Shown one piece after another: positions 23,856 through 50,362 of a DNA stretch of 64,000 nucleotides (its first letter is position 1; each line of letters begins with the position of its first letter). The position numbers were made by a program, and so were the translations under genes. The notes under the pieces are model-generated. The model ran no database searches. It worked only from the letters and a program-made list of their open reading frames with translations, and had not been told where the DNA came from. Origin of the DNA: an uncultured Planctomycetota bacterium. Lineage in GTDB: Bacteria > Planctomycetota > Planctomycetia > Gemmatales > Gemmataceae. The stretch is taken from contig CAWKHF010000005.1 in the NCBI GenBank assembly GCA_963849325.1, positions 1,056,001-1,120,000 of the forward strand, given 5' to 3'.

Positions 23856-23911
23856 TTCCGAGCCTGAAGCGTAAGCGAAGAGATTTCTTCGCTTACGCTT
23901 CAGGCTCGGAA
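23856..23911. repeat. REP-like palindrome, family C (GAGCCTGAAGCGTAAGCGAAG)
   Basis: Perfect inverted repeat; copies at 48787 and 50287. Confidence 0.9.
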
Positions 23912-41783: not shown

Positions 41784-41896
41784 ATCTTATCTCTCCCGGC
41801 GCACGCCGGGTAGGAGGTAGCACCAGCATCCCCCTTGCGGAGGACCGGTTGCTGTGGCTTCACAGGGCCTAATCCCTCAGCCACTCTGGATAAGAT
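41784..41896 (-). promoter_or_regulatory. SAM-I riboswitch (S-box)
   Basis: Minus strand ATCTTATC-CAGAG-TGGCTGAGGGATTAGGCCCTGTGAAGCCA-CAGCAACC...GGTGCTACCTCC...GATAAGAT; P1 ATCTTATC/GATAAGAT. Confidence 0.92.
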
Positions 41897-49707: not shown

Positions 49708-50032
49708 ACCTCGATCTCCTTTCGGAAAGGGACGCCCATTCGGACCGACGCTCGCCGGGCCGATGGCCCGGTCCACACGGATCGGCACGCGGCGATCCTC
49801 TTGCGTCGGCCGGAGGGAGGCGTCCGGTTCGTTGTCCTGGCGTGCCGGACCTTCCGGATAAAGACACGCCGGCGGAGGGAAGAGTTCACCGCCGGCCTTG
49901 GTGAAACTTTAACATCGAGAGACGTTGCAGGGAAGCCCCTTCCGCTCGGTCCCGTGAACCTTTGGTCGGATTGCTCCGTCTATCTCCTGTCCGGCCGAGA
50001 CACAGCGATTCACGCGGACGGCACGGATCGAT

Positions 50033-50108
50033 CCGGATGTAGGAGAGCCTGGTTGCATCCGCCGGCCCTGGAAGCCGGACCACGCTGGTTCAAATCCAGC
50101 CATCCGGA
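50033..50108 (+). tRNA. tRNA-Pro(UGG)-like, atypical (C33, A37)
   Basis: CCGGATG/CATCCGG acceptor, AGCCTGG D-loop, CCGGC-CCTGGAA-GCCGG anticodon arm, GCTGG-TTCAAAT-CCAGC T arm, A73; no encoded CCA. Confidence 0.75.
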
Positions 50109-50116
50109 CTGCATAC

Positions 50117-50202
50117 GGAAGGGCGAGCCAATTGGCGATGGCACCCCGCTCGAAACGGGGCGAGGCCGCAAGCCCTTGAGGGTTCGACTCCCTCTCCTTC
50201 CG
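50117..50202 (+). tRNA. tRNA-Ser(CGA), atypical acceptor-D connector
   Basis: GGAAGGG/TCCTTCC, GCCA/TGGC D stem, CCCCG-CTCGAAA-CGGGG, long variable arm, GAGGG-TTCGACT-CCCTC, G73. Confidence 0.82.
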
Positions 50203-50207
50203 CTGTC

Positions 50208-50277
50208 GGAGGGTCGCCGACGGGTGGCAAACCGCCCTGCTAAGGTGGTTCAGAAGGTTCGACTCCTTCACCTTCCG
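50208..50277 (+). tRNA. Compact tRNA with GCU (Ser) anticodon lacking the long variable arm
   Basis: GGAGGGT/ACCTTCC, GCC/GGC D stem, (AA)CCGCC-CTGCTAA-GGTGG(TT), GAAGG-TTCGACT-CCTTC, G73; 70 nt. Confidence 0.7.
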
Positions 50278-50286
50278 CTGAAGTCC

Positions 50287-50340
50287 TCGGAGCCTGAAGC
50301 GTAAGCGAAGGTTGCTCTTCGCTTACGCTTCAGGCTCCGA
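50287..50340. repeat. REP-like palindrome, family C (may terminate the tRNA transcript)
   Basis: Same arm as 23856 and 48787. Confidence 0.9.
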
Positions 50341-50362
50341 CGGAATCTCGTTGGTCCTGACT

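Follow-up and report, generated by a model that had tools for sequence, protein, structure and literature searches.

Three atypical tRNA genes beside infC in a planctomycete genome form an accessory operon of the tRNA-array kind

The three closely packed tRNA genes that lie back to back with infC in the 64-kb window (by which we mean the whole stretch of DNA that was analysed) form an accessory tRNA operon of the tRNA-array kind. They represent a new case of the known L-arrays, of which they are a fragment, and they are preceded by a promoter-like motif of their own kind, newly noticed here, which is common to all four array loci of the genome. We consider it likely that the locus is a compact operon composed of a promoter, tRNA-Pro, tRNA-Ser(CGA), a truncated GCU gene and a hairpin, that it is the head fragment of an L-array, and that it belongs to a second decoding set, co-induced through an ECF-like promoter. 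Of the original prediction, which was of a small specialised or decoy tRNA operon, the accessory operon was thereby borne out, as array paralogy, redundancy and array homology all agree on it.

The window comes from the genome assembly G000, which comprises 8.16 Mb in 14 contigs (C1–C14), with a GC content of 65% and a completeness of 84.7%. ARAGORN found exactly three tRNA genes in the 64 kb, all on the + strand (Table 1), and so the three closely packed genes are real. The Rfam tRNA model (RF00005, gathering cut-off 29 bits) backs two of them, tRNA-Pro (52.0 bits) and tRNA-Ser(CGA) (37.6 bits), while the GCU gene scored below the cut-off (23.6 bits). The three genes fit within 246 bp of one strand, are separated by spacers of 8 and 5 nt, which is near enough for co-transcription, and share one upstream motif and one downstream hairpin. 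To their left, the opposite strand carries infC-rpmI-rplT-pheS, and the cluster is thus divergent from infC, as had been claimed. To their right are genes of EF-hand proteins and of a DUF1553/PSD1 protein, the EF-hand gene being convergent with the cluster; the DUF1553/PSD1 domain is typical of Planctomycetota. Elsewhere in the window, a SAM riboswitch (S-box leader) was recognized at 41784-41896 on the − strand (Rfam, 84.3 bits).

Table 1. Features of the tRNA cluster and its borders, in window coordinates.
Feature	Position	Strand	Basis
Promoter-like motif GTGAAC-N18-GTCTA	49954..49982	+	pattern search
tRNA-Pro(UGG), array type	50033..50108 (ARAGORN Pro(tgg) 50033-50109)	+	ARAGORN, Rfam 52.0 bits
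tRNA-Ser(CGA), array/phage type	50117..50202 (ARAGORN Ser(cga) 50117-50203)	+	ARAGORN, Rfam
Truncated array-type tRNA-Ser(GCU) derivative	50208..50277 (ARAGORN Ser(gct) 50208-50278)	+	ARAGORN; Rfam 23.6 bits
60-nt perfect palindrome, dispersed repeat copy	50285..50344		folding, genome repeat count

The cluster is not the only one of its kind in the genome. Three further tight arrays of unusual tRNAs are present on contigs C1 (7 genes), C4 (13 genes) and C12 (12 genes), and the four loci together hold 35 genes with 33 anticodons for 19 amino acids (all but Met). All three genes of the cluster are redundant with canonical housekeeping copies: Pro(UGG) at C5:129468, a 90-nt Ser(GCU) at C9:487349, and a Ser(CGA) whose 5' half ends contig C11 and whose 3' half ends contig C14. 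A housekeeping-type Ser(CGA) was also found in G007, G013, G033 and G071. Several contigs of the assembly (C3, C9, C11 and C14) end exactly in housekeeping tRNAs (Pro-GGG, Ser-GCU and the Ser-CGA halves), and for this reason tRNA counts from the genome are lower bounds. In the counts of tRNA flanks given below, 9 of the 92 ARAGORN calls had been removed by eye as false positives, and one stray gene was counted among the non-array tRNAs: a solitary Leu(CAG) on C7 (G000:C7:207740-207823), which shares 92% identity with the array Leu(CAG) found in relatives and is thus of the array type. The genome contains other odd tRNA-like genes as well. One is a 72-nt 'tRNA-Stop(tta)' of ARAGORN (G000:C2:189639-189710) with a clean cloverleaf, possibly an ochre-suppressor-like tRNA; two others, a 78-nt 'Ser gct' (G000:C5:716835-716912) and an 88-nt 'Ala agc' with a long arm (G000:C6:234192-234279), have similar acceptor stems and both follow ggggag.

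In relatives, the counterparts of the cluster are parts of long arrays. At 8 of the 16 related loci scanned, 8-28 tRNA genes lie within ~3 kb, and the homologous array of G029 packs 28 genes into ~2.5 kb. In G016, in G022 and in G006, which is of the same genus, the Pro-Ser pair stands at the head of arrays of 12-16 genes, and in G086 it comes last in the 14-gene stretch that was seen. The arrays of G006 and G016 are contiguous and align in turn to the window cluster (85-86% identity over ~175 nt), then to some of the C1 array and finally to the C12 array (77-79% identity over ~950 nt). Since these contiguous arrays align successively to the C5, C1 and C12 loci, the cluster is the head of an ancestral long array that was split over at least three loci in G000. 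As to the surroundings of the arrays, the C1 array (G000:C1:511000-521000) is flanked by an XhoI-type restriction-modification pair and split AcrB-like ORFs, a transposase-like HTH ORF follows the C4 array (G000:C4:428500-439500), and in a single case, that of G017, an ORF with a PIN domain of the VapC-like toxin family (L015:97-639, − strand) lies just upstream of the array head.

L-arrays are described as horizontally spread and supernumerary, and as stress-induced in Anabaena; Planctomycetes are among the phyla that bear arrays (PMC8421152, PMC4758250). As far as the accessible text of these reports goes, the L-array of PCC 7120 (PMC8421152) and the tRNA array units (PMC4758250) resemble the cluster in being packed, same-strand and supernumerary, and in duplicating housekeeping isoacceptors. 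L-arrays also have in common with the present set some atypical or pseudogene members, a patchy distribution among relatives and a dedicated regulatory signal. The differences concern size and control. An array unit as defined by Tran 2015 has at least 20 tRNA genes at a density of at least 2 per kb, whereas the cluster has 3 genes and the largest locus of G000 has 13, which makes it a fragment and not an array unit. Moreover, the ancestral array is present here in at least three promoter-bearing pieces, and the promoter is ECF-like and not the Anabaena control region. Co-regulation with rtcB, which is reported for Anabaena, can be rejected here, as the motif was found at only 1/30 rtcB loci of the family. 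One motif match lies 336 nt before rtcB in G024, and the region upstream of rtcB in G000 contains only a loose look-alike of the motif. The G000 rtcB itself (G000:C10:46269-47539, − strand), which has an archease-like ORF upstream, gave three separate partial matches to its Pfam model, each in another frame, indicating frameshifts or assembly indels, and these frame breaks limit the trust in single-base features of the assembly.

The motif that precedes the cluster consists of GTGAAC (−35-like, 49954-49959) and CGTCTA (−10-like, 49977-49982), and ends 50 nt before tRNA-Pro. It was matched once in the 64-kb window, compared with 0.02 matches expected from shuffles. A search of both strands of G000 with a spacing of N17-19 gave six matches, of which four are located directly upstream of the four array loci, 19-229 nt before the first tRNA. 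The spacing in GTGAAC-N17/18-CGTCTA is invariant at three array loci and one base shorter at the fourth. By our own estimate from base composition, about five matches in G000 are expected by chance, and so the signal is in the position of the matches, not in their number. The remaining two, one in the rplK/rplA region and one 13 nt before a Ser/Thr kinase ORF, are possibly chance matches. In 147 kb of related loci, four matches were found, each of which precedes same-strand array tRNAs by 31-270 nt. When 121 genomes of the family were searched for GTGAACC-N16-18-CGTCTA, the 45 matches obtained, versus ~53 with the reversed control, corresponded to the chance frequency overall; among the 30 matches examined, six were followed by a same-strand tRNA within 400 nt, and a seventh by one at 418 nt. 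In all, at least nine other genomes have the motif in front of arrays. As the motif is no more frequent than expected by chance genome-wide, its putative function is read from its position.

In the accessible text of two reports, the promoters of ECF sigma factors are characterized by AAC in the −35 element, a −10 element of the CGT/GTC type and a fixed spacing (10.1101/534826, PMC6767563). As the array motif has AAC in its −35-like element, CGTC in its −10-like element and a rigid spacing, we infer that it is an ECF-sigma-like promoter. Neither 24 ORFs that flank the arrays in G000 nor 9 ORFs upstream of the array heads of relatives included a sigma or anti-sigma gene. Two larger ORFs of the sigma-70 family, not obviously ECF, are located downstream of non-tRNA motif matches in two genomes. 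A scan for sigma-70 promoters and intrinsic terminators returned 0 and 0 sites, the sigma-70 scan being uninformative.

At its other end, the cluster is followed by a palindrome with a folding energy of −51.3 kcal/mol and with no T tract, which occurs at ~149 repeat sites in the genome. Perfect palindromes of this dispersed type are 55-60 nt long and have many more copies across the genus. Other copies lie near positions 23860 and 48789 of the window, one lies between rplT and rpmI, and one follows immediately after the C1 tRNA array. The palindrome may serve both the cluster and the convergent EF-hand gene as a terminator or 3' stabiliser.

The first gene of the cluster, tRNA-Pro(UGG), has a C1:G72 pair and A73, and its anticodon loop, CCUGGAA, contains the C33 and A37 that had been pointed out as unusual. 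In an alignment of 13 array-type Pro sequences, 15/20 pairs showed compensatory changes and 0 were broken, and so the covariation check that had been proposed came out positive for this lineage. The six closest homologues have the anticodon CGG, one base off the UGG found here; the closest of all, a copy in G016 with 93% identity, also has C33, whereas contigs of a close relative from soil RNA libraries have U33 and CGG. Within the lineage alignment, A37 is present in 8/13 sequences and C33 in 3/13, namely in this gene, in the G016 copy and in the Pro(GGG) paralogue of the G000 C4 array. Both bases follow a broader pattern: in G000, C33 was found in 6/35 array genes versus 1/48 others, and G37 in 2/35 array genes versus 13/48 others, and 22/276 array genes of relatives have C33. 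Thus, C33 and A37 are tendencies of the array class and not a private defect of the Pro gene. C33 weakens the expectation that this tRNA is efficient on the ribosome. The sole non-array tRNA of the genome with C33 is a housekeeping-type tRNA-Val(GAC) (G000:C13:80442-80515). Viral contigs, searched with a pattern made for the Pro lineage alone, gave 0 matches.

In tRNA-Ser(CGA), the acceptor and D stems are joined by a C-G-A connector, the D stem has 4 bp, the variable arm is long and base 73 is G. The claim that this connector has 3 nt and lacks U8 holds, since the reading is fixed by the covariation of all four D-stem pairs, as found in a mixed alignment of 16 sequences. Because of this covariation, the tRNA must be read as a 7/5 acceptor/T molecule in which three bases lead from the acceptor to a D stem of 4 bp and a D loop of 8 nt. 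All 22 planctomycete Ser homologues, whose anticodons are CGA, GGA, UGA or GCU, have the C-R-A connector, and the array Ser(GGA) on C1 has the acceptor stem, C-G-A connector and D arm in common with the cluster gene. In the alignment of these 22 sequences, in which one row is one base off register, 9/21 pairs covaried and none was broken; the number increased to 12/21 when viral copies were added. The covariation check was therefore positive for this lineage as well, compensatory changes extending over all four stems of the cloverleaf. Other readings of the molecule were rejected. In 8/4 and 8/5 folds, C8 would face C65, and C8 is invariant opposite C or U65. On the tRNA-Sec model (RF01852, cut-off 47 bits), the gene scored 43.9 bits, and its anticodon is CGA, not UCA; a separate tRNA-Sec gene is located at C6:239940. 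The allo-tRNAs, as described in the accessible text of PMC5389517, resemble Ser(CGA) in scoring on tRNA-Sec models, in their occurrence in soil bacteria and phages, and in belonging to polycistrons of irregular tRNAs. However, their branches are 8/4 or 9/3 and their D stem is long and capped by a tetraloop, in contrast to the 7/5 branch, 3-nt connector and ordinary D loop of Ser(CGA), in which the 7-bp acceptor and 5-bp T stems covary, the D loop has 8 nt, and C8 stands opposite C or U65.

The architecture of Ser(CGA) is not confined to bacterial chromosomes. A tRNA-Ser(UGA) of Erwinia phage phiEa21-4 (EU710883.1), termed a 'possible pseudogene' in the record, is built in the same way, with an identical acceptor stem, a C-A-A connector, a 4-bp D stem, an 8-nt loop and a long variable arm, and its T arm and 3' acceptor half are identical to those of the cluster gene over 30 nt. 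Compared with the phage copies, the gene in the window is chromosomal, has no encoded CCA, reads CGA and lies behind a bacterial promoter motif. Unlike the Ser lineage, the Pro lineage had no viral match. We found the connector architecture in 26 viral contigs with a GC content of 31-61% and, among contigs of bacterial genomes, in at least 120 stretches; of the bacterial matches listed, 68/80 have titles that name planctomycete lineages. Four soil or peat RNA-library assemblies contained Ser(CGA) copies that differ from the cluster gene at only 1-2 positions. The main texts of the literature searched gave no description of a 3-nt connector in tRNA-Ser. Solitary array-type Ser(CGA) genes were seen in G002 and G009. 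At L002 and L003, two loci of relatives, array-type Ser genes with C33 were missed by ARAGORN and found by BLAST, while the C33-bearing Ser(CGA) of L014, also from a relative, was called by ARAGORN; because such copies can be missed, array gene counts from ARAGORN are lower bounds.

The third gene deviates most. The GCU gene has 70 nt, a variable region of 4 nt, G73 and a shortened D arm, and its Rfam score is the lowest of all 35 array genes, the other 32 genes, at the three other arrays, scoring 28.0-67.3 bits. The sequence still folds into a cloverleaf (z = −2.1), with an ambiguous D arm. Of the deviations claimed for it, the missing variable arm stood, and the 1-nt connector did so only in part, as the connector has 1 nt or 0 nt depending on the fold. 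The 11 nearest among 659 tRNAs are all array Ser(GCU) genes, matching at most 59 of the 70 bases, and the alignment to them has a gap of 13-17 nt exactly at the variable arm and smaller gaps in the D arm. According to these alignments, the gene derives from an array tRNA-Ser(GCU) by loss of the variable arm. No full-length homologue was found by BLAST with 78 nt against 200 genomes of the family, or in 60 relatives; the best non-self match had 26 nt at 96% and the longest 50 nt at 78%, and the partial matches covered the T arm and acceptor, which are common to Ser genes. The argument that clean stems speak for selection therefore applies to the Pro and Ser(CGA) lineages, where it is backed by covariation, but not to the GCU gene, which has neither homologues nor a long arm. 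According to the accessible text of PMC5389517, the long variable arm and G73 are essential for SerRS. As the long arm is lost, serylation of the GCU tRNA is unlikely, and it is probably not a SerRS substrate. Two genes of the assembly look frameshifted, and so single-base features of this private gene could be assembly errors.

Taken together, these features are most easily accommodated by the reading given at the outset. An ancestral long array, still contiguous in relatives, was broken into pieces in G000, and the 35 supernumerary tRNAs of the genome would be switched on together under some stress by the common ECF-sigma-like promoter. In the transcript of the cluster, RNase P would generate the 5' ends of the tRNAs, the 5-8-nt spacers would be trimmed, and CCA would be added enzymatically, as no tRNA of G000 encodes it (0/81). 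The induced tRNAs would then form a second decoding set, partly phage-related, beside the housekeeping tRNAs. Most likely, tRNA-Pro and tRNA-Ser(CGA) can be charged and take part in translation, and the GCU gene is most likely an uncharged relic, as it has lost the long variable arm. As for transcripts, all 24 RNA-library runs contained at most 16% of the sampled words; four metatranscriptome assemblies contained short contigs of relatives, which cover only the bodies of Pro and Ser(CGA) and leave the promoter, the GCU gene and the spacer joints uncovered.

A bolder interpretation, which we regard as possible though unlikely, would treat the array loci as one ECF-sigma regulon, encoding a phage-derived decoding set with its own rules that backs up translation when housekeeping tRNAs are cleaved or under-modified. 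The substitution of A37 for the housekeeping G37 (in Pro, Leu, Arg, His, Asp and Gln), the recurrent C33 and the Ser with a 3-nt connector would then be design rules of the set. Whereas the reading preferred here has the GCU gene as a relic, under the regulon interpretation it would be functional, having either switched its identity, as C35 and U36 are arginine-type anticodon bases, or become a decoy for a tRNA-targeting enzyme.

Another interpretation, likewise unlikely, is that the cluster is a decaying relic, the silent and horizontally acquired leftover of an array break-up, in which all three genes lack a role and are on their way to becoming pseudogenes. It would fit the GCU gene, which is truncated, private to the genome and below the Rfam cut-off, the occurrence of C33 in only three members of the Pro lineage (this gene, the G016 copy and the C4 Pro(GGG)), the redundancy of all three genes with housekeeping copies, the position private to G000, and the poor expression of most L-arrays stated in the accessible text of PMC8421152. 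However, the promoter motif is intact and agrees with the one at the other three loci and in other genera. Pro and Ser(CGA), moreover, have all their stems preserved, and in their lineages compensatory changes are numerous while not one pair is broken. Nor does decay agree with the near-identical Ser(CGA) copies, 1-2 differences away, in the four soil or peat RNA-library assemblies.

A further interpretation started from the flanks of the tRNAs and from their neighbour. It holds that the three genes encode tRNAs with 8-bp acceptor stems, serving as decoys or specialised adaptors, and that a single bidirectional control region governs both them and the infC operon. Its observational part is correct: bases −1 and 73 are T:A, C:G and C:G in Pro, Ser(CGA) and GCU, respectively, so that they are complementary in 3/3 genes, and CTG stands in place of CCA after base 73 in 3/3. 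The −1 base is also conserved within lineages (T in 7/7 close Pro homologues, C in 13/19 Ser homologues), and the cluster is indeed divergent from infC. However, among the tRNAs of G000, the CTG trailer follows 18/35 of the array type versus 8/46 others, and −1:73 is a Watson-Crick pair in 17/35 versus 12/46. Thus, the CTG trailer and the −1:73 pairing are array-wide tendencies, which also occur in housekeeping tRNAs, and are not signs of 8-bp stems; covariation backs 7/5, the 8/4 and 8/5 folds failing at C8 and C65. Furthermore, U or C at −1 is usual for ordinary RNase P substrates.

The shared control region fared no better. In 5/5 genomes of the same genus, infC was present with no tRNA within 1.5 kb, and the proposed search for syntenic copies upstream of infC in relatives thus gave none in these five genomes. 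The upstream flanks of 3/5 relatives match G000, each on a different contig, and the other two gave no match; the position of the cluster next to infC is private to G000. The homology between the region upstream of infC in relatives and the window ends near 49945, and the motif starts 9 nt after it. Because the motif starts after this homology ends, the cluster, with a motif of its own, and infC are back-to-back neighbours and not partners in one control region. Altogether, tRNAs with 8-bp stems tied to the infC operon are very improbable. The weakest explanation, that the cluster belongs to an integrated prophage or another mobile element with its own tRNAs, can hardly be entertained. In its favour are the Ser(CGA) architecture, which phage tRNA clusters and viral contigs share, and the restriction-modification pair and transposase-like ORF that adjoin other arrays. 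Against it, the module has only ~400 bp, and its neighbours within 3 kb are infC-rpmI-rplT-pheS on one side and EF-hand and DUF1553 genes on the other, with no phage genes; the plasmid collection gave no match and the phage collection only a 30-nt stretch.

What looked like a curiosity of one locus turns out to belong to a system that spans the genome: a second tRNA set, complete but for one amino acid, distributed over four loci with one promoter motif. The tRNA-Ser with a 3-nt connector, entered as a 'possible pseudogene' in a phage record, is a conserved, covarying design of phages and many Planctomycetota, which bears on the annotation of tRNAs and on the tolerance of SerRS and the ribosome for altered tRNA cores. 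If the motif is a real stress-sigma promoter, the system would be well suited to finding out what purpose accessory tRNA arrays serve, as the removal of one sigma factor or of the motif would silence all arrays.
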